A stretch of DNA of 60,971 bases from an uncultured virus (IMG/VR IMGVR_UViG_3300038423_000674) (IMGVR_UViG_3300038423_000674); one strand, 5' to 3'. Shown: positions 11,487 through 51,900, numbered from the stretch's first letter. Notes: generated from the letters alone by a model not told the origin. A program made the numbers and translations.

Positions 11487-11487
11487 T

Positions 11488-12697: not shown

Positions 12698-12939
12698 TCC
12701 ACCCTCCGTCCGTTGCCGATGATTTCGTATTCGATCAGTTCCTTGGTGCCGTGCTGCGGAAGGACGGCGAACTCCCTTACGGCCTTGTCCCTTTCCATGA
12801 CGAAGCCGTAATCGGCGACGCCCCAGTAGCCCTCCCCGCCGTCCCCGTGGCCCGGCATCCAGTCCACCCAGGGTGGCCCTTTGAACATGAACACGTCCAC
12901 TTCGTTCCTTACTGCTCCGGTCCCGACCCACAGCTTCAT
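12694..12939 (-). CDS. Hypothetical protein
   Basis: ATGA-coupled ORF, MKLWVGTG... Confidence 0.55.
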   Translation of the reverse strand: MKLWVGTGAVRNEVDVFMFKGPPWVDWMPGHGDGGEGYWGVADYGFVMERDKAVREFAVLPQHGTKELIEYEIIGNGRRVE

Positions 12940-13247
12940 GATTTGCTCCCTTCCTGGGGCGGTATGCGCCCGTAGGAAAATTCTATCCCGGCATATTCCT
13001 CGGGGTTCGCCAGCACCACCCTGAGGCCGCGATCCAGGCCGCGCTGGTCGATGGGATACATGCCGTGGATGCCGTTGTGGACCTGGACATACGAACCCAC
13101 GTACGAGTTTCCCGGCCATCGTTCGAGGATTTCCCGCTCAAGGAGGTGGAACAGCCACTCCCCGCAGTACGCATGGTGGACCCTGACGACCTTGCCGAAG
13201 GACGGCCTGAGGTCCTCGACCTTCTTTATCTCCAAGCCAACGTCCAT
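12936..13247 (-). CDS. Hypothetical protein
   Basis: Lies just downstream of a GTGTATAAT box; MDVGLEIKK... Confidence 0.5.
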   Translation of the reverse strand: MDVGLEIKKVEDLRPSFGKVVRVHHAYCGEWLFHLLEREILERWPGNSYVGSYVQVHNGIHGMYPIDQRGLDRGLRVVLANPEEYAGIEFSYGRIPPQEGSKS

Positions 13248-13315
13248 CGCCTGCATTATACACCCTTCCGTGTATGAATTCGTGCAATTCCGGCAGTGGG
13301 GACGCTTCCGTGCAT

Positions 13316-14296
13316 TCAGTCCTTGAAGCCCACGGGCGACGCATCTTCGTTGTTCTTGGGCTTTACCCTCATGGCCTTGAGCCTCTCCAGCGTCTCGCCG
13401 AACGACCGGTCGAGGCATTGCGTCGCCGCGACGACCTCCCGCAGGTGCGCCACGCTGAGGCCCTCCGTCTCCTTTGCCCACGTCCGGATCGTTTCCTCGG
13501 GCACCCTCCCCTTGAGGATGTGCTCGAAATACTTGACCCTTGCCCGTTCGTCCGGCATGCGGACCTTGATGACCTCGTCGAACCGGCTGGGCCGGTTGAC
13601 GATCCTCGGGCCCAGGAGGCCGGGATAGTTGGTGGTGGCGAGGTACACGACGTTGTTCACTTGGTCCTCCCCGTCCAGGAGGGCAAGGAGGCTGTGCTCC
13701 CCATAGGCGGAGATGAGCTCCTCGATGTCCTCTATGACGATGATGAGCGGGCGGGAGGGCTCGATTTTGCGGAGGATGCTGAGGGCCTTGCTGCACATCT
13801 TCGGGTTGTCGCACAGGACGACTATCCCGCCTCGGGACACGAGCTTCCGCATCAGGATGCTCACGGCGACGGTCTTCCCGGATCCCGCGGGGCCCCAGAG
13901 GAGGATGCCCCGCTTGAACAGGATGCCCCTTTCTTCGAAGCGGTGCTTCGACTCCCAGAACTTCTCGATGGACCCCACCACCCTGGCGGTGACGGTCTCC
14001 CCGAGGTCGATGATGGCGTCCGTGAGGGGGTTGGACTTGACGAAGAGGAGCATCCCGTCCGGGGTCCTGTCCAGCTTGTACACGTCCGGGGGCAGGGAGC
14101 CCTCGGTGTGCGAGGCGGCCGAGAATGCCCCGTTGGAAAGGACCTGCCACTGGCAGTAGCTGTACGGCCATTCGTTTTTGGGCCTCCCTTCCGGGGCGTC
14201 GCCGGTGGCCGGACCGTCGTTCTGCGCGATGGTCCGGTTGGGACGGTCTGGCTTCTCGTCCAGCAGCTCCTGAAGTTCCTGCATGTCGTCTGCCAT
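13316..14296 (-). CDS. AAA+ ATPase
   Basis: GILLWGPAGSGKT, IVIEDIE, ATTNY, NRPSRFD. Confidence 0.9.
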   Translation of the reverse strand: MADDMQELQELLDEKPDRPNRTIAQNDGPATGDAPEGRPKNEWPYSYCQWQVLSNGAFSAASHTEGSLPPDVYKLDRTPDGMLLFVKSNPLTDAIIDLGETVTARVVGSIEKFWESKHRFEERGILFKRGILLWGPAGSGKTVAVSILMRKLVSRGGIVVLCDNPKMCSKALSILRKIEPSRPLIIVIEDIEELISAYGEHSLLALLDGEDQVNNVVYLATTNYPGLLGPRIVNRPSRFDEVIKVRMPDERARVKYFEHILKGRVPEETIRTWAKETEGLSVAHLREVVAATQCLDRSFGETLERLKAMRVKPKNNEDASPVGFKD

Positions 14297-34449: not shown

Positions 34450-34914
34450 TCAGGACGGAAAGGAACAGGGCAGGCCCTCGGCGTAGTTCCGGTAATAGTC
34501 CTGCTGCGGCCTCCATTCCCAGAACCCCAGCATCCCCCTGGCGGGGATGGGCTCGATGAACTCCGGGTCCAGGAGCTGGTAGCAGAACCTCCCGTCCCGG
34601 TAGTCCCCGAACGCCAGCTCCTGTTTGGACAACTGGTCGCGGACCTCCTCCACCGGGCGGCAGGAAGCGAACGTCACGAACCCTATGACGTGCCCGAGGG
34701 CGAACTGGTCTGGCTCTATGTCGTGCCTGGCCAGGGCCTCGATAAAGGGGCTGGTTTCGCACAGGGCGAGCGCCTTCCTGGGGAATCCCTTGGACGCGTG
34801 GATGGCGACCCGCGCCCCCACTATCCTCCTGTTCGGGCGGGATCGGGTCTCCCACTTCTTTTCCTCCCACACCACCAGCGACGCCCACGGCTCGGTAAGG
34901 GTGAATGCCTTCAT
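34450..34914 (-). CDS. ASCH domain protein
   Basis: AFTLTEPWASLV...KKWETRS...IHAS...PIPARGMLGFW. Confidence 0.85.
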   Translation of the reverse strand: MKAFTLTEPWASLVVWEEKKWETRSRPNRRIVGARVAIHASKGFPRKALALCETSPFIEALARHDIEPDQFALGHVIGFVTFASCRPVEEVRDQLSKQELAFGDYRDGRFCYQLLDPEFIEPIPARGMLGFWEWRPQQDYYRNYAEGLPCSFPS

Positions 34915-35276
34915 TGGGTCCCCCTCTGGCTCGAATTCAGGGCTATCAGGAGGTTGGAGAACGACTTGTGCGGGGTGGGGGGCACCATCTTCCAGTTGAC
35001 CAGGTGGAACGGCTTGCGGAGGGCGAACGCCATGCCGAGGTCGAACAGGCTCCCCTGGCTCGCCGGGTTCCACCAGACGTCCACCCGGTCGGCCCGCTCC
35101 ATCCCCTCCCTGTTGCTTGAGCATATGTCCAGGCCGCAGGGGTCGGACTGGTCCGTGTCCCTCGCCGGCCAATAGACCTCGTGGCCCTCCTCCTCCATCA
35201 GGGAAACGTATTCGGCTACGAACTTCGTTTCCTCCTTCGTAGCCTCGCGGACGGGGCAAATCAAGAACACCTTCAT
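34911..35276 (-). CDS. Nucleoside 2-deoxyribosyltransferase-like protein
   Basis: VFLICP...GHEVYWP...AD...SQGSLFDLGMAFALRKP. Confidence 0.7.
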   Translation of the reverse strand: MKVFLICPVREATKEETKFVAEYVSLMEEEGHEVYWPARDTDQSDPCGLDICSSNREGMERADRVDVWWNPASQGSLFDLGMAFALRKPFHLVNWKMVPPTPHKSFSNLLIALNSSQRGTQ

Positions 35277-35491
35277 GTTTCTTTCCTCCATTTGACCAGG
35301 TTCCTGAGGGCCAGGACGGCGAACACGGCGCAGATGAAGGCCAGCGACCAGAGGCGGTGCTGGAAGGAATAGAGCACCCACACCGACTCCCCGACCAGGG
35401 AAAATGCGAAGGCCCACCATTTCCTGGCCCCCATGTACCACAGGCCGAGGCAGATCAGGGCGTTCCCCGCCCAGTCGAACGGCACCGTCAT
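35273..35491 (-). CDS. Three-TM semi-PnuC/SemiSWEET-like membrane protein
   Basis: 72 aa, three TMs, Trp-rich, ends NLVKW. Confidence 0.5.
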   Translation of the reverse strand: MTVPFDWAGNALICLGLWYMGARKWWAFAFSLVGESVWVLYSFQHRLWSLAFICAVFAVLALRNLVKWRKET

Positions 35492-37173: not shown

Positions 37174-37815
37174 TCAGAAGGAAAAAATCCACGAAAAGAT
37201 GATGTTTATTCCTGGTGGAAGTAACAAAGGAGGTAATGTCTTATAGTTCAAAAGGATGACCGTCTGCTGCGCCGCCGCCACGCTGGGGTAGGAGGACGGC
37301 ACGCCGTCGAAGTACGGCGCGGTCTGCATGGGCGTAGAAGGGAGCCCTCCCCCGATCAGCCCCATCTCCCGGATGGCCTGGACGATGCCGTCGACGGTCG
37401 GGTTGACCGTGGTCTGGAAGTCCACGCTCGTGGATATGGTGTTGACCGGGTTGAAGTTCCCGCTGTTGTCCTGCGTCACGAAGTTTATCCTGGAGAGCCG
37501 GATGCGGGCGATTTCCTGGACCATCGCCACCTGCGAGGCGGTCTCTATGGGCTGCGTCTCGGGTGCCCACGTCGGGCTCCCGGCCCCGAGGGCCAGCCCC
37601 CATGCGCCCCATGCTGGCTCGACGGCCGGCACGCTGATGGGCTGCGTCTGCGGAGGGGACAGCGAGATGGGGCTCGCCGTCGCCATGAAGATGGAGAACA
37701 ACCACCTGCTGACGTCGGTTATGATGTTGTCGGCGCGGTACAGGACCTCCCCGGTGTCCTCCCTGGAGACCGTGATCCTCCCCCTCCTGATGATGGCATC
37801 GTGCTTCTCCGTCAT
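37174..37815 (-). CDS. Tail or baseplate-associated protein (tail-fibre N-terminal, collar-like)
   Basis: NIIT...LALGAG...EIAR...IREMGLIGG...LNYKT...FSWIFSF. Confidence 0.7.
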   Translation of the reverse strand: MTEKHDAIIRRGRITVSREDTGEVLYRADNIITDVSRWLFSIFMATASPISLSPPQTQPISVPAVEPAWGAWGLALGAGSPTWAPETQPIETASQVAMVQEIARIRLSRINFVTQDNSGNFNPVNTISTSVDFQTTVNPTVDGIVQAIREMGLIGGGLPSTPMQTAPYFDGVPSSYPSVAAAQQTVILLNYKTLPPLLLPPGINIIFSWIFSF

Positions 37816-39896
37816 TTTGTTCCCCCCTTGCCTTCCCCGGGCATGCCCCTTCCCTTCCGGCACAGCCGCCGTATCATCTTGCCGGAATCCTCGAACAGGG
37901 CGAGCATGCCGGGATGGAACTGCTTGGGATCGGACTCCATGAGCGCCTCGGCGTCGTCCAGCCCCACCCACCTTATCTTGTCCGTCTCCCATGCGCTGTC
38001 CTCTACGGGGCGGAAGGCAAACTCCCTCTGCACTTCCCCGACGAAGTTGAAATACTGGAACTTGCCGTCCTTGTAGACGAAGGCGGGATGGAGCAGGATG
38101 CCTCCCCCGTACCCCGTCTCCTCCTTCAGCTCGTGCCTGGCGCTGTCGGCGGGCGACATCCCCTGCTTCACCGCCCCGCCTATCGTGCCCCAGCAGTTCC
38201 CCTTCAGGACGTCGGCGCTGCGCCATGCGAGGCAGACGCGCCCGGTGGCAGGGCATACGGGAAGGATGCCGGACGCCGCGTCGCCCTCTCCCGCCCAGTG
38301 GCCCTCCTCGTCGATGTAGTCGGCCTTCTTCTCAATCGCCAAGTCGGACAGCCGTCCGACAATCTTGCCCTTCTGGATCATGACGTAGATTTTGTCGGCA
38401 GGCACGGGATGCTGGGACAGCCAGTCGCCGGGCTCGTAGGCGATCACGTTCCCGTATGGATGCCGCTGGACCGGGCCCAGGTCCTTCAGGCTTACGGCAA
38501 GCCATACGTCCCCCCAGACGCTTATCGGCCTGGAGGAGAACGAGCCCTGTATGAACCCCTCGGCCTTGATGGAGGGCAGGTATTCCAGCCTGGTATGGTG
38601 GTAGACGAGGTCCTTGGGGAGCGCCAGGGCGAGTTTGGCTACCTTGCCCCTGGCCGCGGCATCCTCGTGTTCCCTATGGCTTTTCTCTATCTTCGCCTTG
38701 ACGTTCTCCGGGGTGGTGTCCTCGAAGCGGAGCACGAACGAGGACCCGCATGATGGGTCGGGGTCGGTAAACCAGACGTGCCCCCCCGAGATGCCATCGA
38801 ACCTGCCTCCCCCGTCCTTGACCTTCTGGGCAAGGGCCTCCTCGGAGTCCCCGCCTCCTGGAGGAAGGCTGGTTACGCCCGCAGCCTTGCCCTTCGCGCC
38901 CTCCAGCAGGAGGACCTCCTTCTTCACCTGCTGCCTCCTGGCCTCCTGGTCCTTCCATCCCTTGACCTCGGGCTCCCTGAAAAGCTCCCTGGCCAGCAAT
39001 GCGGCCTTGCGGCGGACGGAATGGGGGACTTCCGAGCCGTGGTCGAGGAGGAAGGTGGCGACCGCGACATAGTCCTGCTTCCGCTCGGGCGTGTCGAGGG
39101 CCATGCCCTCTATCTCGGCGAGGAGCGCCGGGACGTTCTCCTTCGGTATGGGCTCATCGAAGCCCAGCGCCGTCCCCGGCTGCCTGTACCTGTCCAGGAT
39201 GTCGTGGGCGGAGTCCCCATCGTAGGAGCGCACCCCCCACTGCCCCGCCTTCTTGCCGTACTGCATCCTGAGCAGTTCGTTGTGGAACCCGGGCCCGAGC
39301 GACAGCGTCCCCTTGGGGTTCCCCTCCTTGTCGTACACGACGAGGTAGAGGGGGAAGGGCTGCGTCTTTATGCTCTGGAACCTGTAGCGTCTGATGGCCT
39401 TGAGGACGTCGTTCTTGGACGGCTTCTCCGGGCGGTCCTTGACGAACTCCAGGGCCCTGTACTTCGGGGCCTTCCTGACCTTCTTGCCCGCCGTGACCAC
39501 GTGCTTCTGCGTCTCGTTGACGAACCCCATGGGAAGCTCGAAGCTCCCCCTGGCGGTCCTCACCGTGGGGTCCTTATCCTCCTCCTCCGCCTTCCCCCTC
39601 TCCGTGATTTCCCTGTAGCATTCGAGGGCCAGGGCGTACATCTTGGCGATGACGTCCTTCCCGTACCCCGTGGAGAGCATGAAGGCCGACATCTCGTCCA
39701 GCATCACGGCCAGGGCCTCGCTCGCCACCTGCCGGAACACGCCCGGGTCGCTGGGAGGAGCCGGGAACTTTACGGAAAATATGGAGAAATTGGGTATGCC
39801 GAGGTCCAGGACTATGGAGGCGGACGGCTGCGCCGAGCGCGTCGTCGTTATTTCGAGCGTCCCGTTGGCCGGCGAAAGGTAGGACTTCTTCTTCAT
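37812..39896 (-). CDS. Polyvalent protein: unknown domains plus DUF4259-like, ART-like and Nudix domains
   Basis: GQWGVRSYDGDSAHD; VYHHT...SIKAEGF; WGTIGG...SARHELKEETG. Confidence 0.75.
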   Translation of the reverse strand: MKKKSYLSPANGTLEITTTRSAQPSASIVLDLGIPNFSIFSVKFPAPPSDPGVFRQVASEALAVMLDEMSAFMLSTGYGKDVIAKMYALALECYREITERGKAEEEDKDPTVRTARGSFELPMGFVNETQKHVVTAGKKVRKAPKYRALEFVKDRPEKPSKNDVLKAIRRYRFQSIKTQPFPLYLVVYDKEGNPKGTLSLGPGFHNELLRMQYGKKAGQWGVRSYDGDSAHDILDRYRQPGTALGFDEPIPKENVPALLAEIEGMALDTPERKQDYVAVATFLLDHGSEVPHSVRRKAALLARELFREPEVKGWKDQEARRQQVKKEVLLLEGAKGKAAGVTSLPPGGGDSEEALAQKVKDGGGRFDGISGGHVWFTDPDPSCGSSFVLRFEDTTPENVKAKIEKSHREHEDAAARGKVAKLALALPKDLVYHHTRLEYLPSIKAEGFIQGSFSSRPISVWGDVWLAVSLKDLGPVQRHPYGNVIAYEPGDWLSQHPVPADKIYVMIQKGKIVGRLSDLAIEKKADYIDEEGHWAGEGDAASGILPVCPATGRVCLAWRSADVLKGNCWGTIGGAVKQGMSPADSARHELKEETGYGGGILLHPAFVYKDGKFQYFNFVGEVQREFAFRPVEDSAWETDKIRWVGLDDAEALMESDPKQFHPGMLALFEDSGKMIRRLCRKGRGMPGEGKGGTK

Positions 39897-39925: not shown

Positions 39926-40378
39926 CTATGCTTGGTGAAGCTCGCCGTCCTTCAGGAACCCGTGCCAGCCATTGGCCAGGACGCTGCCCGCCCCCACGGG
40001 GCATGTCGGCCCGGCATTCTTGTCCACGGTGACGTTGGGGGGCTCCCCCCGCCTGGGCCAGCAGCGGTGCGTCCAGTCGTCCTTCATTGTGCAATTGGAA
40101 CAATGCCCGTCGATGCTCCAGTCGGAGCCGTTGGGGAGGACGACGCAAAGCGGGGGCTCGGTCTCGTTCTTCCATATGGCGTTTTTGACGTACCAGTAGC
40201 AATGCCACATGGCTCCCGGGCCGAACTCATGCACGTGTTCGTGGCGCTCGCCTGTGTCGTTGCGCACAAAGCCCAGGATTTCCCGGTTGTCCCATACGGG
40301 ATAATCGGAGTCGTCGATGCGCTTGTCCCCGAATATGGGCTCCACGAGGAAGCATTTGATCCCCATGCTTGTATTCAT
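39926..40378 (-). CDS. Cys/His-rich hypothetical protein (DUF6527-like)
   Basis: C-terminal WHGFLKDGEL. Confidence 0.55.
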   Translation of the reverse strand: MNTSMGIKCFLVEPIFGDKRIDDSDYPVWDNREILGFVRNDTGERHEHVHEFGPGAMWHCYWYVKNAIWKNETEPPLCVVLPNGSDWSIDGHCSNCTMKDDWTHRCWPRRGEPPNVTVDKNAGPTCPVGAGSVLANGWHGFLKDGELHQA

Positions 40379-41307
40379 CTATTTAGGGGACTTAAAGCCC
40401 TCAAACAAAACCCGCAACCATTGCTGAGGATACCTCTAGCAACATGCCAACGTGTATGCCTGCCTCTGTCTAAAGAGGCCTTTCGTTTATCGTCGCATAC
40501 CATCCCCTTGAGTGCATTGGAAATAGCGTCTCTTTGAGATTTTGGCATGGGTCTTCCTTGCTGTCGCAACCTCATCCGCTCAGCCTGCCTAAGCCTTTCT
40601 ACATCGGTCCATACATGTCGCATGGGCATAACGGGCTTAATCCCTTGCTCCCTTTCCCGTCTTCGCCGAACGGACTGAGCTTCCGACATATGAATATGAA
40701 ACGTGGGAGATTTTTGGGCCTTTCGCAAGGCGTTCAATCTTATTTGCTCACTCCTTTTGTCTTTTATCCGATGCAAAAAGCAGGTTGATGAGCAATATAC
40801 CCTCTTCTTTTTTCCAAAGGATACGAAAAAGGTCCCCCCACAGACAGGACAGAGTTTTTCTATCTGTGGTTTTTTATTAAGTTGCTTAGCCTTACGGATT
40901 TTGAGTGAGTGAACTCTACGATCTTGTGGACTATAGGATGACCACATCTCTTTACTTGCTGCAGATATTTTAGAACAAGTGGCCTTCGTGTGCGGCCCCG
41001 TGAACCCCTCCCCTCCCCGTTGGATGTTGTAGCCGTACTCCGGGTCCTGCGAGCGCAGGAACCTGATGAAGTCCCGTTCAATTTGGTCAAGCTCGATCCT
41101 GTCCTGGATGTCGGATCGTAGGGCGTGGATGGACCAGACCTTGGGGTCTGGGTGCTTGCGCATGGAATGGAACAGGCGGGAGTTTTCGGAGATTCCTCTC
41201 CGGGCGTGGTGGAGCTTCTGCTGGAGGTACTTCTTTAGGTTGCTCCCTTTGTGCTGACCAACGTAATATTTGCTGGTCTCATGGTTTACGATCAGGTAGA
41301 CGAACAC
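40375..41307 (-). CDS. GIY-YIG homing endonuclease
   Basis: FVYLIVN...YYVGQ...GYNIQRGGEGF; CPVC/YCS..C finger; low-GC C-terminus. Confidence 0.88.
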   Translation of the reverse strand: MFVYLIVNHETSKYYVGQHKGSNLKKYLQQKLHHARRGISENSRLFHSMRKHPDPKVWSIHALRSDIQDRIELDQIERDFIRFLRSQDPEYGYNIQRGGEGFTGPHTKATCSKISAASKEMWSSYSPQDRRVHSLKIRKAKQLNKKPQIEKLCPVCGGTFFVSFGKKKRVYCSSTCFLHRIKDKRSEQIRLNALRKAQKSPTFHIHMSEAQSVRRRREREQGIKPVMPMRHVWTDVERLRQAERMRLRQQGRPMPKSQRDAISNALKGMVCDDKRKASLDRGRHTRWHVARGILSNGCGFCLRALSPLNR

Positions 41308-41346: not shown

Positions 41347-42777
41347 TCAATCAAAGTTTAATACCTGCAATGAGTCTTTACGAATCTCCCAGGCGTTCGA
41401 CTCCCTCGGGGCCACGAGGCCCATCGGGCTGGCGACGTTCCAATTGGCAACCTCGCCGGTGGGGCTCCCCGTCTTGTCCACGACCTGGATCCATTTCTGC
41501 GGACTGGTGAGGTAGCTCGTGCCGAGGTTCTCCCACAGGATGCCGTTGTCGTCCGTGATGTCCCCCTTGGTGGTGCTGAACGTCACGGAAGCGCCGGATA
41601 TGCCCCCCGTGGTCGCAACCTGCAAGTTGCCATTCGGGTCCAGGATGAACTGGCCCGCATAGAACGGCGAGCCGCCCGCCCACGGGGCGATGCCGAGGAT
41701 GTAAGCCCCGGAAGGCAGCGGATGGTATGCCTGCCATGCCGCGGGGCTGGGGAGCTGCTTCCAGTAGGAGGGGCTGCTTGCCGGGGACTGCCCGACGTTC
41801 TTCTTCAGGGCCCGGTACATGAGGTAGCTCGCCATCGGCGGGCTGATCGTGGAGAGGCTCGCCAGGATGCCCCTGGCGTACGTCGCGGCCGGGTCCCACG
41901 GGGCGGGAAGGGCCTGGAGCGCCGTCCACTGGGCATAGGTCAGGAAGGGCGTCATGCGGCGTCCGAACGATGCGAGCGTCGTCTTCGGGTGCTTCACGTC
42001 GAATATGGGGGCTATCCACAGCATCGGGTCGAGCGGCGCTGCCTCTATCTGCTGGACGATGATCCGCAGCGTGTCGATGATGGACATGGGGAGGTTCTCG
42101 GTCTCCCCGAACACCGTGGTGAACTCCAGGCCGACGTGGGCGGGCTTGGCGAGGTCGATGGCCCCGTAAAGGCTCCGCACTATCTCCTGGAGCTGCCCGA
42201 GGCTCTGCACCTCCGTCAGGGGATTGCTCCCGAAGGCGTTGACGCTCACCTGGATGGCGTTCCGGTCCGACTGGTCGTAGACGCCCTGCCCTATCTGCGT
42301 GTAGAGCTCCACCACCTTGATGGCCTTCCCCGTGTAGGCGTAGATCACGTCTTCGATTGCCTTGGAGGTGGCCCCGAGCCGGTAGGCGGCAAGGAGGTCG
42401 ACGAGCATGTCCCTGTACCCCACCGGGTTGGTCAGGGAGGGGACCACGGGGCTCCCCGTGAAGTCGCCCTTGTCGAACTGCGCGGGCGGGGGGAAGTTGC
42501 GCCCCACGGACAGCGGCCCCGCCCAGCGGCGGCGGGCGTCGGGGGGCGTCAGGTACTGCGGCTCCCCCGTGACAATATCATATTGGTAGTCGTAGTCCAG
42601 GCGGGCGAGCTCCTGGGCGATGGCGCGCATGAGGCCCCCCCACATGGGCTGGTCGTTGCGCGGGGAGTAGTAGTTGCAGACCGCCTGGAGGAGCCCGAAC
42701 AGGCGGGCGTCCTCGAAGACCAGGAGCGATTCCCTGGGCAGGAGGTAGAGCAGGTCCGGATTGATCTGGCTAGCCAC
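41347..42777 (-). CDS. Baseplate wedge (gpI-like) protein
   Basis: AYRLGAT...IDLAKPAHV motif; follows the baseplate J-like gene. Confidence 0.7.
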   Translation of the reverse strand: MASQINPDLLYLLPRESLLVFEDARLFGLLQAVCNYYSPRNDQPMWGGLMRAIAQELARLDYDYQYDIVTGEPQYLTPPDARRRWAGPLSVGRNFPPPAQFDKGDFTGSPVVPSLTNPVGYRDMLVDLLAAYRLGATSKAIEDVIYAYTGKAIKVVELYTQIGQGVYDQSDRNAIQVSVNAFGSNPLTEVQSLGQLQEIVRSLYGAIDLAKPAHVGLEFTTVFGETENLPMSIIDTLRIIVQQIEAAPLDPMLWIAPIFDVKHPKTTLASFGRRMTPFLTYAQWTALQALPAPWDPAATYARGILASLSTISPPMASYLMYRALKKNVGQSPASSPSYWKQLPSPAAWQAYHPLPSGAYILGIAPWAGGSPFYAGQFILDPNGNLQVATTGGISGASVTFSTTKGDITDDNGILWENLGTSYLTSPQKWIQVVDKTGSPTGEVANWNVASPMGLVAPRESNAWEIRKDSLQVLNFD

Positions 42778-42869
42778 CCTTTTTCCTCGTTGCCAGCAGG
42801 CCTATGATGAAAAGGAAAGTGCTGAGCGCCGAAACGCTGGCGAACGCCGTCCACATGTCCTTGGTCATG

Positions 42870-43220
42870 TTATCCGATGATCCTCATCCGGGGCTTCCAC
42901 CGCTCGTCGTCGGATTCCCCCATGGGATGCATGTACATGTCCTCGTAGTCGTGGGGGTCCCACGAAGGATCGAGGATAGGAACCTTGCGTATGTCATCCC
43001 CCTTGACCTCGATGGCGACGGGGTCCTTCAGCTCCCCGTCCCAGCCGCCCCTGGCAGCATATTCCTCGGCGGAATAGGGAGTGCCGTAAAGGTATACCCC
43101 GTAGCCCGCATCCCCCCATCCTCCCGCAAAGCCGTTCTTCAGGATGTCCGCCGCGGCATCCCTTTCCGTGACGTGGTAGAATGTCCTCGGCGAAGCGAGG
43201 AACTGCGCCCTGAATCCCAT
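42870..43220 (-). CDS. Stand-alone ADP-ribosyltransferase-fold protein
   Basis: FYHVT...ILKNGF...GYGVYL...AEEYA...IEV...E. Confidence 0.75.
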   Translation of the reverse strand: MGFRAQFLASPRTFYHVTERDAAADILKNGFAGGWGDAGYGVYLYGTPYSAEEYAARGGWDGELKDPVAIEVKGDDIRKVPILDPSWDPHDYEDMYMHPMGESDDERWKPRMRIIG

Positions 43221-43222
43221 GC

Positions 43223-46200
43223 CTAGCTCCCCGACGCCACGTAGCCGATGGTGACGCGGCCCGGCACGACGTACTCCGTGCTGGAAAGGACGACGTCGCT
43301 CGCCGTCGTCTCCCCCTCCACGACGTAGGTCACGAAGTAACTCTTGAGCGAGGGCGTCGGCGTGTCGGCCGGAATCGTGAGGATGACCTTCTGGGCGTAG
43401 GATGCGGCGAGCGGCGCGGAGGCGCTGACCTGGTCGTTGGCCCCTATGATGTAGAACGAGCCGTTCTCCGAGGACACGGAGGGCGTCGCCGCATTGTCGA
43501 GGAAGTCCCGCACCGACGTGGCGCGGGCGTATTCCTGCCCCTGGTAGAGCAGCCCGACGAAGGCGTCTGCAGGCCCCCCCGAGGGGACGGTGCTGTCCGG
43601 AAGAATTTGGCCGGAGGAGATGAAGCTGTTGCTCGGGACCGCCAGCCCGGTGAATGCTGGGTCCTGGGAAAGCGGGGTCCAGGCCGTCCCCGTGGGTATC
43701 ACGACCGCGACGTCGTAGCTCCCGTCGCTCTTGGCGCACTTCGTGAGGGGCAGGACGACGGACTTCACGCCCGGGACCGCCTGCACCTGGGCGACGATCT
43801 CGGACTGGTAGAGCGTCGTCTCGGCGTTGTCCAGCACCGTGTCGATGGCGGTGCGGACGGCCGGGTCTATCGTGCTGGCTGAGATTCCCTGCTCCAGCAC
43901 CACGGTCAGCGTGACGTCCACGGGGTTGGCGACCATCGCCTTGACCAGCACGTCAGCATCGGCATGCTTCGTGCTGGCGATCCGATTCGCCAGGATGGGG
44001 ACGAACGCGGGGTATTCCGTGGCGACGGTGAAGGCCTCGTTGTAGAAGTACGACACGAGGACCTGCCCGCCATCGGGGATGCGGCTCGTCCCGCTGACGG
44101 ACGTGTTCCTCTGGATCGTGGCGAGGCCCGAGATCGGGTCCACGGCAAGGATGAAGTCCACGCCCTCGACCATCGTCTCGTACGTCGGGGGATCCTGCCC
44201 GTTCTGGAACAGGACCTTGACGTAGCGGCTTGCGTAGGGCACCCTGGCGGCGATGAGGTCGACGTCCAGGACGAGGACGGTGCCATCGACCGTGTCCCCC
44301 AGGGGATTGACGTAGCTGGTGCCGTAGGTCGGCGGCTGCCATGCGTTCTGGATGAACCCTTGGTTGGCCAGGGCGCTGGGGATGCTCCCGTTGAGCGTCA
44401 GGGCCTCGCCGGAGGCGAAGCTCAGGCTCTCGCTGACGACGAACTTGTTGTACGCCACGACCACCTTCTGCTGGTCCTGGATGGCGCTTCCCGTGGCCGT
44501 CCCCGTCACCGCCGTGGCGGGAAGGTCGCTGCCGGGATAGGTGGCGGTGAAGGCCGTGCCGGTCGAGGCGACGACGACGACGGTCTCCCCGTTGAGGAAC
44601 GCCGCCGCGTTGGCGGCCGGAATCCCGCCCAGAAGGATGGGTGCCCCCGTCCCGAAGTCGTTGGCGCATGCCACGGTCAGGACGTTGCCGGAGATGCTTA
44701 CTTGCGTGATGGCGACCGACTTGACCTGCGGGAGCAGGGCATACGTGCGGTAGGGCCCGGCGGGCACGATGACGTAGTCGCCGCCCGGGCCGAAGCTGTA
44801 CAGTATCGAGGAGTCCGTGGAACGGACGGACAGGACGTTGCCGGGGACGCCGTTCGTGTCCACCGGCAGGTCCATCCCCGAGTCGATCAGGACGGGGAGG
44901 GGGACGCCTCCCGGCACGCTCGCCTCTATGGTCAGGATGAGGGGGCTGCTTGCCGTGGAGGGGACCTGCGCGGTGTCCCCGGCCCGGTTGGACCCCCCGT
45001 CGAGCAGGAAGTCCGAATGGTGCACCAGGGTGACGAGGGCCTCCGGGACCGCCCCCGTATAGCCCGCCTGCCCGACGACGGAATTTACCTTCATCACGGG
45101 CTGGTTCTCCGGAACGTCGGACAGGGGGGACTGGATGCGGGCGAGCAGGCTGTAGTTCGCCGAGCCGCCAGCATACGTCACCGCCGCCAGGTTGGTTGCC
45201 GGGACGCCGTTGATCAGGAAGGGGACGTAGGCTTGCGTGGGGCCGCTTCCCGTGACCTGGTATGCCATGTCGCCGGGGTCGAGGATGAGGAACCCGTCCG
45301 TGTTGTTGAACTGCGCCTTGCCGAGGCCGAGGAAGAACTGGCCCGTGAGGCTGGAGACCAGCAGCTCCACCCCCTGGTAGGGCTGCCACGGCAGCGCCCG
45401 GAAGGCGGCGCTCCCTATCTGGAACTTCACGAGCTGGCTGGACTTGGAGACCAGGGTGAGGAACAGGTAGCTGGTGTAGGCCCCGTACGTCCCGGAGTTC
45501 TGGTACCGGAACGCCACGATGTCGTCCTCCTCGGACGACGTGTTCCCCTGGACGTAGACGTCAACGCAACCGAAGACGTGCTTCTGGCGGATGGGGTCCC
45601 AGTCCCTCTGCATCTCGACGTCCCCTGCCGCCACCACCTCCCCCGCCACCACGCCCGGAGTGGCCAGGGCGGCGGTGAGGTAGCCGTCCCGGGTCCCGGA
45701 GTCGACGCCCGTGACCTGCCGCACGGCGATGCGGGATGCGAACTTGGAGTTTATCTCGTCGTCCTGCCCGAACGTGGCGGCGACGGGGTTCGTGATGTTC
45801 CAGCCCGCAGGGGCACCGGAGCCTATGGTGCGGATCGTACCGGCCCCCGCGTTCGTGGTGCTTCCGGCAGTCTGGCACGATGCGGGGACCGACACCGCCC
45901 ACCATCCGTTGACGGGGTCGTAGAAGGATGCCGCGGAGCCCTTGTCCACCACGGCGGAGCCCGTGGTCATGAACGTCAGCGAGGGCGTGTTGCCATCGGG
46001 GACCGTGGCGCACAGGATGCCCACGGGAAACGACACCGTGACCGTGGGCTTGACGTAGGTGTAGAACGTGAGGGTCACGACGGAGGATGTGGCCCCTCCG
46101 CGAACGAGCCCCACGCTTTCCCCGAGGATGTCGAACTGCTTGTCGATGAGCGTCTGCGTGTCGTTGGCGCTGAGCCCGAAGGCCCGGGAAATCTGCTGCT

Positions 46201-47446
46201 TGACGGAGGAGGTATTGAACGGGTCGCTGGTCCCGTTGCCGCTTGCGTTGTCCACCTGGCTCATGGCGGACACCGACTGGCTCACCCTGGCGAACCATTC
46301 CCTGACGCTCATGTTGGACAGCTCTATGGCCACGGGGTCGATGAGCAGGTCGCGGGGCTCCGAGCGGGGGGTCAAGTCGAGGTCCGGGTAGAGCTGCGTC
46401 ATGTAGGCAATGAGCCGGCCGGCGATGTCCTCCTTGCGCTGGAGGGCGAGGAAGTCGGTGGGGCTGACCAGGGACAGGTCGGCAAACCCACACGTCACGG
46501 GCCCGTTCTGCTGGGATTCGAACACCACGCTGGTCAACGGATCCTGAACGACCGTCGAGAGCATGGCATAGAACTTGGCTGCCCCGTTGACCGCCGAGGG
46601 CAGTATGTCCACGTAGTTGTAGGTGAACTCCTGCGTCTGGTTGACCGTGGTGATAACCTGCGTGCCGGTCTTCGGGTCGTAGCTCGTGGAGGTGGAGCTG
46701 TCGATGACCTGCGTGCTGGTACGGCTGACCGCGCTGGTGGGGACCACGTCCCCGTACTGGACGTACGGCGGGCTGACCCCGGCAGGGTCGGTGGAGAGCA
46801 TGACCTTGGTCCCCATGGTCCCCGGGAAGGTCGGCATCAGCCATTCCACCCGGCAGGCCACCTGGGACTTGTAGGAGCTTATGCCGCTCGGGGGGCCGAT
46901 TACGGCGCTGGAGCCGCTGACGAACGGTATGACGGTGAAGCCGACCGTGGGGCTCACCTCGTAGAGGCCCATGTTCTTCCACGTGGTGCCGCCGTCCTGC
47001 GTGATGGTGGCGGGGAGGTCCTGGGCGATCCCCGCAGGGGTGAAGACGACGGGCTGGGAGGCCCCGGTGGGCCCGGTGGCCGCCGTGACGGCCTGCACGT
47101 ACCCGTTGGCGTCCACGAACCGGAAGCCCACGGCATACAGGGTCCTACCCGCCCACGTCATTATCTGCATGGGATCGTAGTTCCTGGCCAGGAACTGGAG
47201 GACCGCCTGCTCGCCCTGCGTGTCTATGGCTATGGTGCCGACGAAATGCGTCTTTCCGGACACGGGGGGCAGGGGTGCGCCGTTTATGGTGACGGTCCCG
47301 TAGATCGAGACCTCAAGCCGGACGTAGGAGGAGTCGGCCAGGACGTCGTATGGAAGGACGGTCGAGTCCACCGACATGGAGGTGGCTCCAGCCTGGAGGA
47401 CCGGCGTGACGAGCGTCAAGGCGCTTCCCGAGATTGGTGGCTGCAT
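43223..47446 (-). CDS. Baseplate J-like wedge protein
   Basis: DLLIDP, G.S.GL.R, FGQDDE, GTRDGY, GCVDVYV, EIVAQVQAVPGVKSV. Confidence 0.82.
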   Translation of the reverse strand: MQPPISGSALTLVTPVLQAGATSMSVDSTVLPYDVLADSSYVRLEVSIYGTVTINGAPLPPVSGKTHFVGTIAIDTQGEQAVLQFLARNYDPMQIMTWAGRTLYAVGFRFVDANGYVQAVTAATGPTGASQPVVFTPAGIAQDLPATITQDGGTTWKNMGLYEVSPTVGFTVIPFVSGSSAVIGPPSGISSYKSQVACRVEWLMPTFPGTMGTKVMLSTDPAGVSPPYVQYGDVVPTSAVSRTSTQVIDSSTSTSYDPKTGTQVITTVNQTQEFTYNYVDILPSAVNGAAKFYAMLSTVVQDPLTSVVFESQQNGPVTCGFADLSLVSPTDFLALQRKEDIAGRLIAYMTQLYPDLDLTPRSEPRDLLIDPVAIELSNMSVREWFARVSQSVSAMSQVDNASGNGTSDPFNTSSVKQQISRAFGLSANDTQTLIDKQFDILGESVGLVRGGATSSVVTLTFYTYVKPTVTVSFPVGILCATVPDGNTPSLTFMTTGSAVVDKGSAASFYDPVNGWWAVSVPASCQTAGSTTNAGAGTIRTIGSGAPAGWNITNPVAATFGQDDEINSKFASRIAVRQVTGVDSGTRDGYLTAALATPGVVAGEVVAAGDVEMQRDWDPIRQKHVFGCVDVYVQGNTSSEEDDIVAFRYQNSGTYGAYTSYLFLTLVSKSSQLVKFQIGSAAFRALPWQPYQGVELLVSSLTGQFFLGLGKAQFNNTDGFLILDPGDMAYQVTGSGPTQAYVPFLINGVPATNLAAVTYAGGSANYSLLARIQSPLSDVPENQPVMKVNSVVGQAGYTGAVPEALVTLVHHSDFLLDGGSNRAGDTAQVPSTASSPLILTIEASVPGGVPLPVLIDSGMDLPVDTNGVPGNVLSVRSTDSSILYSFGPGGDYVIVPAGPYRTYALLPQVKSVAITQVSISGNVLTVACANDFGTGAPILLGGIPAANAAAFLNGETVVVVASTGTAFTATYPGSDLPATAVTGTATGSAIQDQQKVVVAYNKFVVSESLSFASGEALTLNGSIPSALANQGFIQNAWQPPTYGTSYVNPLGDTVDGTVLVLDVDLIAARVPYASRYVKVLFQNGQDPPTYETMVEGVDFILAVDPISGLATIQRNTSVSGTSRIPDGGQVLVSYFYNEAFTVATEYPAFVPILANRIASTKHADADVLVKAMVANPVDVTLTVVLEQGISASTIDPAVRTAIDTVLDNAETTLYQSEIVAQVQAVPGVKSVVLPLTKCAKSDGSYDVAVVIPTGTAWTPLSQDPAFTGLAVPSNSFISSGQILPDSTVPSGGPADAFVGLLYQGQEYARATSVRDFLDNAATPSVSSENGSFYIIGANDQVSASAPLAASYAQKVILTIPADTPTPSLKSYFVTYVVEGETTASDVVLSSTEYVVPGRVTIGYVASGS

Positions 47447-48972: not shown

Positions 48973-51900
48973 CTAGCCGCGATTAGCGGTTATCGTGGCG
49001 ACCGCCCCGCTGATGTACGAGATGGCCTGGGCGAAAAGCATGCTGGTGCCGCCCATGTACGTGACGACGCCCCCCACCGTCATGCTCAGGACGGAGACGA
49101 CGGTCCCCGTGCCGGACGGGAACTGGGCCTCTATCGTCCATCCCGTCAGCCATCCGCCGCCGTCGTAGTTCGGGGTGACTCCCACGACCGTGACCCCGTT
49201 GCTCATGGTGGCGGAGGCCGATATGCTGTTCCCGGTCCCGCTGGCCGTCCCCTGCTGCTGCGGCGAGAAGGGCTTGCTGAGGGCGACGACGATGTTGCTG
49301 TAGTTGGGGACTTTGTAGGTCACCGACATCGTCACATAGTACACGCCCAAAGAAGTGCTCCCGAGCGACACGACCGTGATCCACAAGCCGAAAATTGATG
49401 CGTTTAAGTTGGTCGGCGTCAGGTTGGTGAACCCAAACGTCTCGGTCGGCGATCCAAAGGTGATGGTTCCTGCACTGGAGGGCCAGGATAGATTGCCGAC
49501 CGTCTGAACTTGATTTCCGACGAAAACCACCACAGTGCTGAGTGTCGGAGAAATACCCCCAATCAACTGTCTCTTGATCGTTATCGACAGACCCGTGATC
49601 GTGGCGTTCAACGGTATGTTGAACCCGAAGTCCTGGGCTACGAGTTCCGGGGCTCCTTGATTGTTGAGCTGGACGCTTGCATATGCATCGGTGTTCGCCT
49701 CGATGGCGGACGCATTGGTCCATCCAGTTCCACTCCTCGGGAAGTTAGGACCTGCAGTTACCGTGGAGATGTTGCTCGTCGGTATGGTCAGAGGGTTCGG
49801 CGTGACGGACGCCACCGTGGGCTTGACCATGTAGAGGACCGGGAGCGCCTGGCTTTTCCCCCCTCCTCCCGAGGTCACGGCGAACGTGTCGAAGCTCTTG
49901 TTCGCCGAGTTGAACCAGGCAATGTCCTCGTCCGACAGGGCGAGGTTGGTGAGGGCCACGTGCGAATCGAAGCCCGCCCCGCCGTAGGACAGGGAGAAGT
50001 TCGTGCCGTCGAACCCGAAGCCCACCTTCCCCTGGTAGCTGCTGTTGTCCCCCGTCAGGGAGAAGTCCGCCGTCGCCGCGGAGGGCTTGTCGACGTTCTG
50101 CCCGTTGTACTGCTGGAACGTGAAGGTCGGGTTGTTCGGATCGTTGTATACCGGCAAACTTGCGCTTGTCCCTTCGAGCAGGGGGACGCCGTAGGCCGGG
50201 ATGGATCCGTTGCCCGGGGCGGGCCGGAGCGCCCCGTTGGCATAGACTATCCAGGTGAACGACCCGGAGGCGTTGATCCCGCCCACGTCCGTGACGCCCA
50301 CGTTCAGCGTGTTGCTCCCGATGAAGCCCGACGCAAAGGGTCCGCTAAGCCTGATGTATGCCGTGCCTCCGGATACTGATTCGACGACCGACGTATAGCC
50401 GGATGGGACCGTCACGAGGAGCTGGCTCGGGGAGGTGGCGATCACGCCCGTGGCAACGATGTAGAACGAGCGGTTCGTACGGGGGCTAATGGTATCGGCA
50501 TTGCCCGTGGCGACGTATCCAAGGATTCCCAGGCTGAGCGAGTCGACGTAGTCCACCCCGGCATGCAGGGTAAGACCGACATTGACGGGGAGCACAAACG
50601 CCTTCTGCACGACGGTGCTCGCGCCGTCCGTGACCTGCACCGTGATGTTCACGTTCCCGGCCACATTGGTCGTCCCGCTGATCGTGCCGCCCGAGCTCAG
50701 GGACAGGCCAGTCGGCAGGGACCCGCCCACTAGGGCCCATGCGTAGGGAGGCGTACCGCCCGTGGCCGCCAGGATCGTGGAGTACGCCACCCCTGCCGTC
50801 GCGCTGGGGAGCGGGGAGGCGGTGGATATGGCAAGCGTACTGGACGATGCCGTGATCGTGAAGTCGTCGCTCGCCGTATCGGCCGGGCTCATGGCATCGG
50901 ATACCTGCACGGTGAAGGTCCAAGTATTGTTCACGCCGGGCGTGCCCGTGAGGACGCCGCCGCTGCTCAGGCTGAACGGGAAGCCGCCCGGGGAGGCCGT
51001 GATGGCCCACGTGTAGGAGGGGGTGCCCCCGCTCGGGGAGCCGCCGCCTGAGGCGGCGAACTGGAACGGGCTTCCTCCCGGCTGGTAGGCCGTGCCCACG
51101 ACCGCCGTGGGAAGGGGGGACAGGGTGGTTATCGCCAGGTTGGACGACGCGATGAGGCTGAGCGTGGCGGTCGCCATGTGGCCCGCGATGTCCACGGCCT
51201 GGACCTTGACGAGGTATCCGGCGAACGCCGCCCCCGTGTAGAGCCCGACGATGCGTGCGGTCGCCCCGCTGTCCGACGAGCTGGGGGTCAGCGTGAGGCC
51301 GGACGGAAGCGGGTTGGGGGAATCCGCGGTGACCGTCCACGACACCGGCGTCGTGAACGTGCCGTCGACCGCCGGGGTCCCCAGGTAGAACGACCCACGG
51401 TTGATCGTCCCCACGCCGCTCGGGTCAATGGTCATCCCCGCGACTGCGCCGACCGTGACGGGCAGGCTCGTGGTGGGCGTGGGCACGTAGGTCGAGTCGG
51501 TGACCTGGAACGTCACGTACTCCGTGCCGTACCCGCTGTCGGCGGTAGTGCCCGAGATGACCCCGGAATCGTTCATAGTGATGCTGGTGGGCAGCGAGCC
51601 AACGGTCACGGACCAGTGGTATGGAGGAATCCCGCCCGCCGCCTGCATCGTGAACGAGTAGGGGCTGGCGAGGGTTATGGGGGCGACGGCGGTCGTGGTG
51701 ATGACCAGGGCGTTGTTCACGCTGAGGGTGACGACCCTCGTTACCACGGTCCCGTTGCTGTCGGTGAGCGTGAAGGTGACGTTATAGTTGTGCCCGTTGA
51801 GCGTGGCGTCGGTGACGGTCCCCGAGAGCACCCCGGTGGACGCATCGAGGGTTATGTAGGGCACCAATGCCGCCGCGCTGGACGCCATGTCGCTCGACCA

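Follow-up and report, generated by a model that had tools for sequence, protein, structure and literature searches.

A multi-effector phage protein with modules exchanged at short K-x-A linkers, encoded among baseplate genes of an uncultured virus

The gene and its surroundings

The window analysed here, a stretch of 60,971 nucleotides from an uncultured virus (IMG/VR IMGVR_UViG_3300038423_000674), carries on its minus strand a long open reading frame (Table 1) which is real as judged by its strong coding bias (GC3 0.88, GC2 0.43). The TGA stop of this frame overlaps the ATG of the downstream gene as ATGA. Comparison with related loci showed a conserved gene order, namely p235, sheath initiator, J-like, p476, the multi-effector gene and the wedge-3-like gene. 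Each of the 32 loci that carry the N-terminal domain had p476 upstream and 28 of them had the wedge-3-like gene downstream, and the order held across the loci down to 42% identity. This conserved baseplate-wedge order bears out the claim, made earlier from the sequence, that the gene lies inside a baseplate/tail operon. We propose that the phage is a jumbo myovirus from soil, kin of Tunturiibacter phage Tunturi_5, and that the product is late and virion-associated. Other genes in the window encode a nicotinamide phosphoribosyltransferase, an NMN adenylyltransferase-Nudix protein, a nucleoside deoxyribosyltransferase-like protein and a PnuC-like fragment, and these NAD+ salvage-type genes indicate that NAD+ biology matters to the phage.

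Table 1. Features of the multi-effector gene and its neighbours in the window.
Feature	Coordinates	Strand	Basis or remark
Whole ORF, polyvalent multi-effector protein	37812..39896	-	694 aa plus stop, ATG start
N-terminal K-K-S directly before conserved YLSP	39882..39890	-	Family motif K-x-[A/S]
N-terminal subdomain a, residues 1-136, alpha/beta fold	39489..39896	-	Blocks mostly pLDDT 77-88
VVTA, residues 133-136, insertion hot spot	39489..39500	-	Homologue alignments
N-terminal subdomain b, residues 137-217, C-terminal end MQYGKKA	39246..39488	-	Low-confidence model
K215-K216-A217 linker motif before GQWG	39246..39254	-	Low pLDDT
Helical module, residues 218-339	38880..39245	-	pLDDT about 82-94
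K337-A338-A339 linker motif	38880..38888	-	Inside low-pLDDT stretch 335-348
Small alpha/beta module, residues 340-420, GGG-x-F-x-G signature	38637..38879	-	pLDDT 83-94 over 349-417
K418-V419-A420 linker motif, then K-L-A	38637..38645	-	Low pLDDT
Minimal ART-fold module, ~95 aa, residues 421-525	38322..38636	-	Model pLDDT 91.3, fold searches
K523-K524-A525 linker motif before Nudix module	38322..38330	-	Low pLDDT at 514-524
Nudix hydrolase domain, residues 526-694, then basic, glycine-rich tail	37815..38321	-	Pfam and fold
Downstream gene, resembles baseplate wedge 3 / tail-fibre-network component	37174..37815	-	Translationally coupled (ATGA)
Conserved upstream baseplate genes: Baseplate_J-like (1407 aa), 116-aa ORF, 476-aa protein	41347..47446	-	

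Domain architecture

Polyvalent proteins of phages and conjugative elements, as described by Iyer et al. (2017, PMC5512222), combine many unrelated effector domains in one polypeptide with extreme mosaicism; ART domains are common among them and their separation into units has been predicted. The protein studied here is polyvalent in this sense, with at least two unrelated effector-type domains, and it resembles the described proteins in its multi-effector chain, its mosaic homologues and its location among late/virion genes. Its modular make-up, a claim of the sequence-only reading, stood in our analysis, with a Nudix domain, an ART fold and two more folded modules. It differs from the polyvalent proteins of Iyer et al. 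in two respects: a short K-x-A linker motif marks the borders of its units, and its constant part is N-terminal, a domain with a fixed place in the baseplate gene order.

The conserved region 1-217 forms the constant part of the protein, which is probably built into the particle through it. All 29 homologues that contain the YLSP region have K-x-[A/S] in front of it, and the leader ahead of this motif is variable, with a length of 4-8 aa where it forms the N-terminus of the protein. Subdomain a is closed by VVTA, whose residues V133, V134, T135 and A136 are nearly invariant in the homologues. Modules were found inserted at VVTA in P0007-P0010, P0012, P0014, P0015, P0031 and P0032, and each insert ends anew in [K/V/T]-x-[A/S] before GK. 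A profile of the N-terminal domain gave nothing credible against PDB sequences and PHROGs (the best match, to an amidase, covered 46 residues at E 0.0031), and a match to a known baseplate family was not found in these searches. A complex prediction of the domain with the wedge-3-like neighbour scored 0.00, which is evidence neither way.

Among the cargo modules, the small alpha/beta module was found in many homologues. The helical module had previously been likened to DUF4259 (PF14078), and this membership was not upheld: residues 216-338 had no Pfam match at E <= 10 and the search for short homologues of the module found none. The one line of support is a neighbouring atlas cluster (score 0.86), 28% of whose members carry the family, and we treat the name 'DUF4259-like' as a weak lead from a language model. 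None of the four non-Nudix parts of the protein matched Pfam at E <= 10, and the whole protein and three neighbours gave no NCBIfam match. Fold searches with the whole AlphaFold2 model returned Nudix matches only. A peptidase family was not found in Pfam, either for the whole protein (E <= 1) or for the four non-Nudix parts (E <= 10). In the related genome record G002, a paralogue of any module was not found elsewhere.

The ART-like domain that had been suspected from the sequence gained support from the model, Foldseek and VIA for residues 421-525, and the analysis thereby delimits an ART-fold module of roughly 95 residues. The best Foldseek rows were mostly Tpt1/KptA and diphtheria toxin (best E 0.059), and most of the best 50 VIA rows were ADP-ribosyltransferase-fold by title, though at Z values of only 7.3-3.5. 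The top structural match was mouse Tpt1 (Z 7.3, rmsd 2.9, 85 residues aligned). In the Tpt1/KptA rows it is the C-terminal half of the chain that matches, and in comparison with these enzymes the phage module, at only ~95 residues, is without the N-terminal lobe of Tpt1. An alignment of 15 sequences showed E488 to be invariant and H433 and S452 (within G-S-F-S) to be nearly invariant. Judged from this alignment, the three positions would correspond to catalytic-type residues of the ADP-ribosyltransferase superfamily; set against Tpt1/KptA and other ART-fold enzymes, the triad of the phage module is conserved as H-S-E. The ART-PolyVal profile (PF18760) did not match residues 421-525 at E <= 10, while it matched other modules in the homologues P0005, P0031 and P0039 and also Tunturi_5 gp273. 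The ART module occurs alone and within proteins of 1.6 to 4.1 thousand residues, and in the length class of 381-1215 aa the search with it returned P0004 only.

The Nudix domain, likewise predicted earlier, was confirmed by PF00293 (43.8 bits against a cut-off of 21.1, residues 541-660) and by its fold (VIA Z 15.4-11.8 over residues about 523-683; Foldseek E 4e-7). Compared with the Nudix box consensus, E-E-x-G is retained, the first conserved Glu position is occupied by Met, and the Arg position is His here and variable among the homologues. Homologue forms without Nudix or ART also exist (321-486 aa), and the forms without both keep the N-terminal domain together with a conserved beta-rich or Cys-rich tail.

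Linkers and module exchange

The sequence-only reading had put domain boundaries at six motifs, all of which are present: VRTA (112-115), VVTA (133-136), GKKA (214-217), GKAA (336-339), GKVA (417-420) and EKKA (522-525). In the AlphaFold2 model (mean pLDDT 70.4) the stretches below 50 include residues 137-141, 196-221, 335-348, 418-504 and 514-524. Five of the six sites lie in or abut such stretches, VVTA abutting 137-141 without lying inside it. The sixth, VRTA, is not a boundary, because it falls within a strand (E112-120) of the folded N-terminal domain and lacks conservation among the homologues.

The expectation that homologues would shuffle their modules at the named linkers held for VVTA, GKKA, GKAA, GKVA and EKKA, since the ends of BLAST alignments against 37 homologues clustered at residues 134-142, 211-222, 333-357, 412-423 and 520-524. 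Of 15 homologues, 14 have K-x-A directly before the helical module and one has R-x-A, with three different modules preceding it. Within 10 aa or less before the Nudix start, K-x-A was present in 20 of 31 homologues and K-x-[AGS] in 24. The linker K-x-A is followed by G, D, S or A.

Counted over the protein as a whole the motif is at chance level, with K-x-A found 6 times against 5.1 expected (p 0.4 in a screen that also covered the Tunturi_5 ORFs) and [KR]-x-A 11 times against 8.7. At the breakpoints it is enriched: K-x-A occurred within 7 residues at 69 of 214 internal breakpoints in 38 proteins, as compared to 176 of 4456 background windows (3.9%), and it ranked first among the tested a-x-b patterns. 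Once similar junctions were removed, it was present at 25 of 93. With shuffling within the window around each junction, the z value for K-x-A was 6.6 for all junctions and 2.9 for the non-redundant ones. A-x-K was also raised (z 2.7 and 2.1, respectively), as were K-A and K-x-K, so part of the K-x-A signal reflects K/A-rich linker composition. The order-specific excess of K-x-A in the non-redundant junctions (z 2.9) is thus modest, and the junction motif is degenerate, with K-K-G, V-K-A or V-R-A at many junctions. Two other origins of the motif were weighed and set aside. A signal-peptidase-type site requires a small residue at position -3, where the linkers have Lys, and recombination microhomology does not agree with linkers whose Lys and Ala codons are ordinary AAG/GCN and whose middle codons differ.

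Possible processing of the protein

In relatives of the phage the same motif was found around a protease gene. The Tunturi_5 gp331-type protease was found in 4/5 and 2/5 related records, and one of these, G007, holds on a single contig both this protease and the closest relative of the multi-effector gene. The nearest Pfam-bearing atlas clusters of the protease are Peptidase_S78, S77 and S80 (scores 0.89-0.92). Its variable C-terminal tail contains a conserved K-[A/V]-A-S island in six of seven sequences, and its variable N-terminal stretch contains K-T-A-[A/S] in five of seven. The scaffold proteins of the relatives carry 13-24 copies of K-x-A against 5.6-12.3 expected, a two- to threefold over-representation seen in 7/7 (z 2.5-5.0), and in every one K-x-A is more frequent than A-x-K. 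Among 248 Tunturi_5 ORFs K-x-A was most enriched in two, the scaffold gp332 and gp328, a 'DNA ejection protein'. When K-x-A was combined with the P1' set derived from the junctions, gp328 had 14 matches against 2.7 expected (p 1.2e-6) and gp332 had 9 against 2.3. These data support a specific enrichment of a K-x-A-type motif, in the relatives, in head proteins beside an assemblin-like prohead protease.

In G002, which is 99% complete and syntenic, a gp331-type protease had no match. A PHROG scan of 198 G002 ORFs (88 + 110) detected portal and terminase but not a capsid protein or a protease, and 12 ORFs near the G002 portal, scanned against Pfam, likewise yielded neither of the latter two. Searching G002 by tblastn with the capsid protein, protease and scaffold of Tunturi_5 gave one weak match, to a 165-aa frame beside similar small frames. 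The Peptidase_S78 and HK97 Phage_capsid profiles had no match in five related records; the silence of the Peptidase_S77 and T4 Gp23 profiles in the same records is uninformative, as control genomes were silent too. Tunturi_5 gp90 is annotated as 'major head protein' and was rejected as the capsid protein on account of its GPPGTGKS nucleotide-binding loop.

Prohead proteases cut at L/I-x-E in T4 and at S/A/G-x-E in phiKZ, and T4 Alt, an ART, is among the head-packaged effectors that are trimmed by the prohead protease. The sites of herpesvirus assemblin, which has the same fold as the phage prohead proteases, have Ala at P1 and Ser at P1'. The K-A-A-S island in the phage protease tail would resemble these sites, with Ala-Ser at the putative scissile bond, but the P3 preference differs from that known for assemblin. 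The protease of phage SPN3US cleaves at A-X-E and also trims off its own C-terminal propeptide (PMC10052503). As in T4 Alt and internal proteins and the SPN3US and phiKZ ejection proteins, a short motif appears to recur in scaffold or propeptide regions. In contrast, the motifs of T4, SPN3US and phiKZ end in Glu, whereas the candidate site here has Lys at P3 and Ala at P1; in those phages it is also mostly N-terminal propeptides that are removed, and not an enzyme chain that is dissected. The presence of one motif at the module borders and in the scaffolds, an ejection protein and the protease tails of the relatives gives a concrete cleavage hypothesis.

Our first choice, held tentatively, is a late, virion-associated polyvalent effector whose modules would be freed at the linkers by the phage's own, presumed assemblin-like prohead protease. 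Exchangeable cargo (the helical, small alpha/beta, ART-fold and Nudix modules) would be carried behind the constant region 1-217, and the short, disordered K-x-A linkers would most likely be the recognition sites of this protease. We infer that the protein is housed in the head and cleaved during particle maturation, which would free the modules as separate proteins, and that these would be delivered into the host and, at an early stage of the next infection, act on NAD+/ADP-ribose-type targets. Cleavage at the linkers is plausible but unproven. Polyvalent proteins are believed to be divided into working units, and the sole cutters proposed for this are embedded peptidase domains, which are absent from this family; in the description of Iyer et al. 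(2017, PMC5512222) they are MPTase domains, common among polyvalent proteins though no defining feature of them, and none is detectable here.

Myovirus tails assemble separately from the prohead protease, and a conserved baseplate-wedge order fits a tail anchor, which argues against access of the head protease. In the T4 Alt family the genes lie beside baseplate genes and the protein is nonetheless packaged in the head (Iyer et al., 2017, PMC5512222). The conserved order and the forms without Nudix and ART also fit a structural baseplate protein, and it is possible, if rather doubtful, that the protein remains uncleaved. Region 1-217 would then be a peripheral wedge or tail-fibre-network component with the modules hanging on flexible K/A/G-rich linkers, and K-x-A would represent linker composition or the natural start of a module instead of a protease site. 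This agrees with the invariance of the gene order, with the ATGA coupling to the wedge-3-like gene, with the raised A-x-K and K-x-K at the junctions, with the way K-x-A travels with the helical module behind any upstream module, and with a protein in which no peptidase domain is detectable. On the other hand, Nudix and ART modules outside a baseplate would meet no NAD+/nucleotide substrate unless they were released into the cell, and composition alone is insufficient for a directional motif enriched in the scaffold, ejection protein and protease tails of the relatives. The N-terminal domain, moreover, matches no known baseplate family in the profile searches, and polyvalent relatives in Tunturi_5 adjoin genes annotated as head or connector (gp273 near a 'minor head protein', gp225 near a 'portal protein' and gp321 near a 'head-tail connector protein').

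Much less probable is that the protein stays unpackaged, as a late multi-enzyme of the cytoplasm that acts on NAD+/ADP-ribose metabolism in the producing cell and merely shares the operon with tail genes. The NAD+ salvage-type genes of the window would suit such an enzyme, but it is hard to see on this view why the N-terminal domain keeps its place between wedge genes in 32 loci, and the class is described as virion-associated (Iyer et al., 2017, PMC5512222; Iyer et al., 2022, PMC9503650). Slighter still is the chance that a host or another phage protease, and not the prohead protease, cuts the linkers after injection or in the cytoplasm: linkers that are exposed and disordered in the model, the post-delivery processing proposed for polyvalent proteins (Iyer et al., 2017, PMC5512222) and a tail location, which would exclude the head protease, speak for it, but a peptidase domain is absent from the protein and the flanking genes examined, and the motif enrichment is centred on head proteins beside the prohead protease gene.

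Processing by the prohead protease may also be put more widely, in a form that we consider doubtful though worth stating. The soil jumbo phage clade that includes Tunturi_5 would have a prohead protease with a K-x-A specificity (Lys at P3, Ala at P1, small or acidic P1') not described before, and K-x-A-bounded modules would be swapped into polyprotein-like carriers and released in capsid maturation. If true, this would be a dsDNA-phage analogue of the polyproteins of RNA viruses and would define a new prohead-protease specificity. It would also explain how effector modules are freely exchanged without loss of their release, and it would make mature effector boundaries predictable in many uncultured jumbo phages. 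The hypothesis that the protease of capsid maturation also processes injected effectors is testable in cultured Tunturi_5.

For virion-associated Nudix proteins of myoviruses (the T4 NudE clade), injection and activity on ADP-ribose derivatives have been predicted (Iyer et al., 2022, PMC9503650). In that description the Nudix domain lies among late genes or is fused to virion proteins, as it does here, but the fusion partner in our case is a baseplate-operon domain plus other effectors. Pairing the ART and Nudix modules as writer and eraser is speculation. Across the homologues the Nudix domain is nearly constant, whereas ART modules come and go.

Gene setting and module anatomy

The 694-aa reading frame is clearly coding, with a GC content of 0.88 at codon position 3 and 0.43 at position 2, and stands in the baseplate block of a large myovirus. 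Genes for a sheath-initiator-like protein, a 1407-aa Baseplate_J-like protein and a 476-aa protein lie 5' of it. The TGA stop shares bases with the start codon of the following gene (ATGA), and this 3' neighbour resembles a 'baseplate wedge 3 tail fibre network component'. The closest related record to the window is a 47.8-kb fragment, and among phages with a name the closest is Tunturiibacter phage Tunturi_5, a jumbo myovirus of Acidobacteriota with a 309-kb genome (PMC11924767); no mention of mass spectrometry was found in the available text of that paper.

Other features of the window were also recorded. Between the 476-aa baseplate gene and the gene studied here lies a GIY-YIG homing-endonuclease-like gene with a G+C of 0.564 versus about 0.64, which in relatives is missing, at the same site or shifted downstream, as expected for a mobile endonuclease. 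A 116-aa ORF begins at the stop of the J-like gene and carries a Y-H-V-T ... G-V-Y-L-Y-G signature suggestive of ART cores; this frame had no Pfam, PHROG or NCBIfam match, and no tblastn match in 43 related loci. A 1912-aa tail or baseplate protein contains six He_PIG Ig-like repeats (Pfam E 1.3e-42), and the related viral record G002 has a 1912-aa ORF at the same position. Elsewhere in G002, several kb without a long coding frame, beside an HNH endonuclease gene, look like an RNA-gene array.

Coordinates of the features discussed (AF2, AlphaFold2 model of the whole 694-aa protein)
Feature	Location	Strand	Remark
694-aa protein gene	window 37812..39896	minus	ATG start
Folded alpha/beta domain	residues 11-135		AF2
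Weakly modelled segment	residues 142-215		AF2
Helical module	residues 222-334		AF2, confident
Small alpha/beta module	residues 349-417		AF2, confident
ART-fold module	residues 418-524		unmodelled stretch in AF2; module modelled at 421-525
Nudix domain	residues 525-683		AF2
NAD+ salvage set	window 9840-11258, 11488-12507, 34911-35351, 35273-35491	all minus	
GIY-YIG gene	window 40375-41307	minus	
116-aa ORF	window 42870-43220	minus	
He_PIG repeat protein	window 48973-54711	minus	
Frame-poor stretch	L055 about 8000-13700 (G002 108-113.7 kb)		
gp90	L067:18759-19988		Tunturi_5 locus

Searched with the whole protein, Pfam and PHROGs recognised only the C-terminal Nudix domain, whose presence the sequence-only reading had proposed. 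The AlphaFold2 model was based on an alignment of 32 homologues and had a mean pLDDT of 70.4. The N-terminal domain matched no known family in profile searches against PDB sequences and PHROGs. The helical module had been labelled DUF4259-like, and this label did not hold: there was no Pfam match even at E <= 10, no short homologues were found, and the family appeared only in an atlas neighbour cluster (score 0.86; 28% of members with DUF4259).

The segment left unmodelled at first is a real module of 95 aa. When 1.84 billion representatives were searched in full with HMMER, 43 relatives were found at E <= 0.001, ranging from free-standing proteins of about 100 aa to parts of proteins of 1.6-4.1 thousand residues. 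Modelled alone on an alignment of 14 short relatives, it reached a pLDDT of 91.3 and a pTM of 0.83. Foldseek gave weak rows (best E 0.059), most of them Tpt1/KptA and diphtheria toxin, and an independent VIA search gave a Z of 7.3 to mouse Tpt1, most of the 50 listed chains being ADP-ribosyltransferase-fold proteins as judged by their titles. Among the module sequences, His433, Ser452 (in G-S-F-S) and Glu488 vary little or not at all; Pfam ART-PolyVal did not match it. The earlier designation 'ART-like' is thus accepted at the level of predicted fold and motif. No published description of this module was found in main texts.

K-x-A at module junctions

The number of sites in the protein alone is unremarkable (K-x-A, 6 versus 5.1 expected; [KR]-x-A, 11 versus 8.7 expected); their positions are what matter. 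Six sites had been proposed as domain boundaries, and five of them (VVTA, GKKA, GKAA, GKVA and EKKA) lie in or beside low-confidence linkers of the model, whereas VRTA falls within a strand; VRTA is also not conserved in homologues. All three K-x-A-[SAGD] sites of the protein (215, 337 and 523) are, on our reading, module junctions.

In the 37 homologues the N-terminal region is retained, and as a rule the C-terminal Nudix too, but the middle modules differ. Shuffling at these sites, which had been put forward as a check, was confirmed by BLAST alignments ending at residues 134-142, 211-222, 333-357, 412-423 and 520-524. Breakpoints were then defined as ends of all-against-all alignments (214 internal, 38 proteins), and residue-x-residue patterns seen at least three times were ranked. 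K-x-A ranked first, occurring in 69/214 breakpoint windows versus 176/4456 background windows, and in 25/93 junctions once similar junctions were removed. With residues shuffled within windows, its z was 6.6 for all junctions (reached by 0/1000 shuffles) and 2.9 for the non-redundant ones (4/1000). A-x-K, K-A and K-x-K were likewise raised, so part of the effect comes from K/A-rich linkers.

Directly before the helical module, K-x-A was found in 14/15 homologues and R-x-A in one, after three different upstream modules. Modules inserted at VVTA close again with [K/V/T]-x-[A/S] before GK, and K-x-[A/S] stands ahead of the conserved YLSP in 29/29 homologues, past a short variable leader or an N-terminal extension. 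Before the Nudix domain, K-x-A occurs in 20/31 homologues and K-x-[AGS] in 24/31, with V-K-A and V-R-A in others; about half of the N-terminal-region ends are K-K-G, as we read the junction sequences. The junction motif is thus degenerate. Tunturi_5 has three proteins annotated as MutT/NUDIX hydrolase (1262 to 1489 aa), which we read as polyvalent; K-x-A sites of gp273, including AKVA, PKKA, SKSA, IKSA and GKTA, sit between its Pfam domains. A topic search of the literature, the pattern itself not being searchable as text, found no published description of the junction motif.

Cys-rich segments were seen in two homologues: a long repeat module (Pfam PF00684) between the N-terminal region and Nudix of a 914-aa protein (P0025), and a metallothionein-like tail at the end of the one at locus L037.

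Prohead protease and head proteins of relatives

Standard profile searches for the head module in relatives gave no match, the S77 and Gp23 profiles being silent in control genomes too, and the 317-kb syntenic record G002, scanned with PHROGs, yielded no capsid protein or protease. In Tunturi_5 the annotation makes gp331 a head maturation protease and gp334 a major head protein; gp332, acidic and unnamed, we take to be the scaffold. Another protein deposited as 'major head protein', gp90, carries a GPPGTGKS nucleotide-binding loop as in P-loop ATPases; gp334 is 69-72% identical across six related records and is more likely the capsid protein. Homologues of the protease (61-64% identity) were found in 4/5 and 2/5 related records, one on contig G007, which also holds the closest relative of the 694-aa gene. 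For the protease, the nearest Pfam-bearing atlas clusters were Peptidase_S78, S77 and S80 (scores 0.89-0.92), no more than a lead.

Seven sets of protease, scaffold and capsid alignments were compared. The scaffolds contain 13-24 K-x-A versus 5.6-12.3 expected (z 2.5 to 5.0, 7/7), and K-x-A outnumbers A-x-K in all seven. The conserved capsid-protein N-terminus contains K-[S/T]-A-[A/G] and K-L-A-A. In the protease, K-T-A-[A/S] occurs in 5/7 variable N-terminal stretches, and a K-[A/V]-A-S island in 6/7 C-terminal tails, which are otherwise variable. In the herpesvirus assemblin rule the scissile bond is Ala-Ser. The pattern of the Tunturi_5 clade matches that of SPN3US, in which the short motif A-X-E is found repeatedly in propeptides and the protease cleaves off its own C-terminal tail (PMC10052503).

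Among 248 Tunturi_5 ORFs (about 83% of the genome), K-x-A enrichment was highest in the scaffold (16 versus 5.6) and the 'DNA ejection protein' gp328 (19 versus 8.7), whose genes are both beside the protease gene. With the P1' set D, G, S, A derived from polyvalent junctions, K-x-A-[SAGD] again placed gp328 (14 versus 2.7 expected, p 1.2e-6) and the scaffold (9 versus 2.3, p 6e-4) as the top two. No published link of the motif to these head proteins was found in main texts.

In relatives (L070, L077-L082), the K-A-A-S island of the protease is followed by about 20 conserved, amphipathic residues that form its C-terminus, and the scaffold C-termini are conserved hydrophobic tails of the A-L-F type with K-x-A sites before them. 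Such tails might dock to the capsid and would be set free by cleavage.

Proposed cleaved effector or possible baseplate protein

Both the polyvalent proteins as a class (Iyer 2017, PMC5512222) and the proposal that ART and Nudix are packaged (PMC9503650) are already in print. We tentatively propose that the 694-aa protein is a polyvalent effector associated with the virion and that the phage prohead protease would cut its K-x-A linkers. Cutting would free the helical module, the small alpha/beta module, the minimal ART and the Nudix, which may act early in the next host.

The main alternative, somewhat less likely, is a baseplate protein that stays uncut and from which the modules dangle, K-x-A then being linker composition or module N-caps. 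Myovirus tails are assembled away from the prohead protease. The order around the N-terminal domain is conserved (p235, sheath initiator, J-like, p476, the 694-aa protein, wedge-3-like, p233): at identities down to 42%, p476 is upstream in 32/32 loci and the wedge-3-like gene downstream in 28/32, the other four including loci cut off by a contig edge. There are also relatives of 321-486 aa in which the N-terminal region is joined by neither Nudix nor ART, only by a conserved tail that is beta-rich or Cys-rich. Fixed gene order and such forms are the behaviour of a structural baseplate protein. No published description of a carrier domain fixed in a baseplate operon was found in main texts. The N-terminal domain lacks a match to any known family. 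A precedent stands on the other side: T4 Alt-family genes occur in association with those of the baseplate, although the protein is packaged in the head (Iyer 2017, PMC5512222). Complex prediction of the N-terminal domain with the neighbouring wedge protein scored 0.00, which is evidence for neither reading.

An ADP-ribose writer/eraser pairing of ART and Nudix had also been suggested, and the distribution does not support it: the Nudix is nearly constant and three kinds of ART module come and go. ADP-ribose-type targets are a natural guess for the Nudix because of the NAD+ salvage genes in the window and the literature (PMC9503650). The salvage set consists of a nicotinamide phosphoribosyltransferase (PHROG E 6.5e-147), a fusion of a cytidyltransferase-type adenylyltransferase with a Nudix, a protein resembling nucleoside 2-deoxyribosyltransferase and a PnuC-like fragment of 72 aa, and resembles the NARP2 counter-defence pathway as published. 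Tunturi_5 has the same pair, gp217 and gp218.
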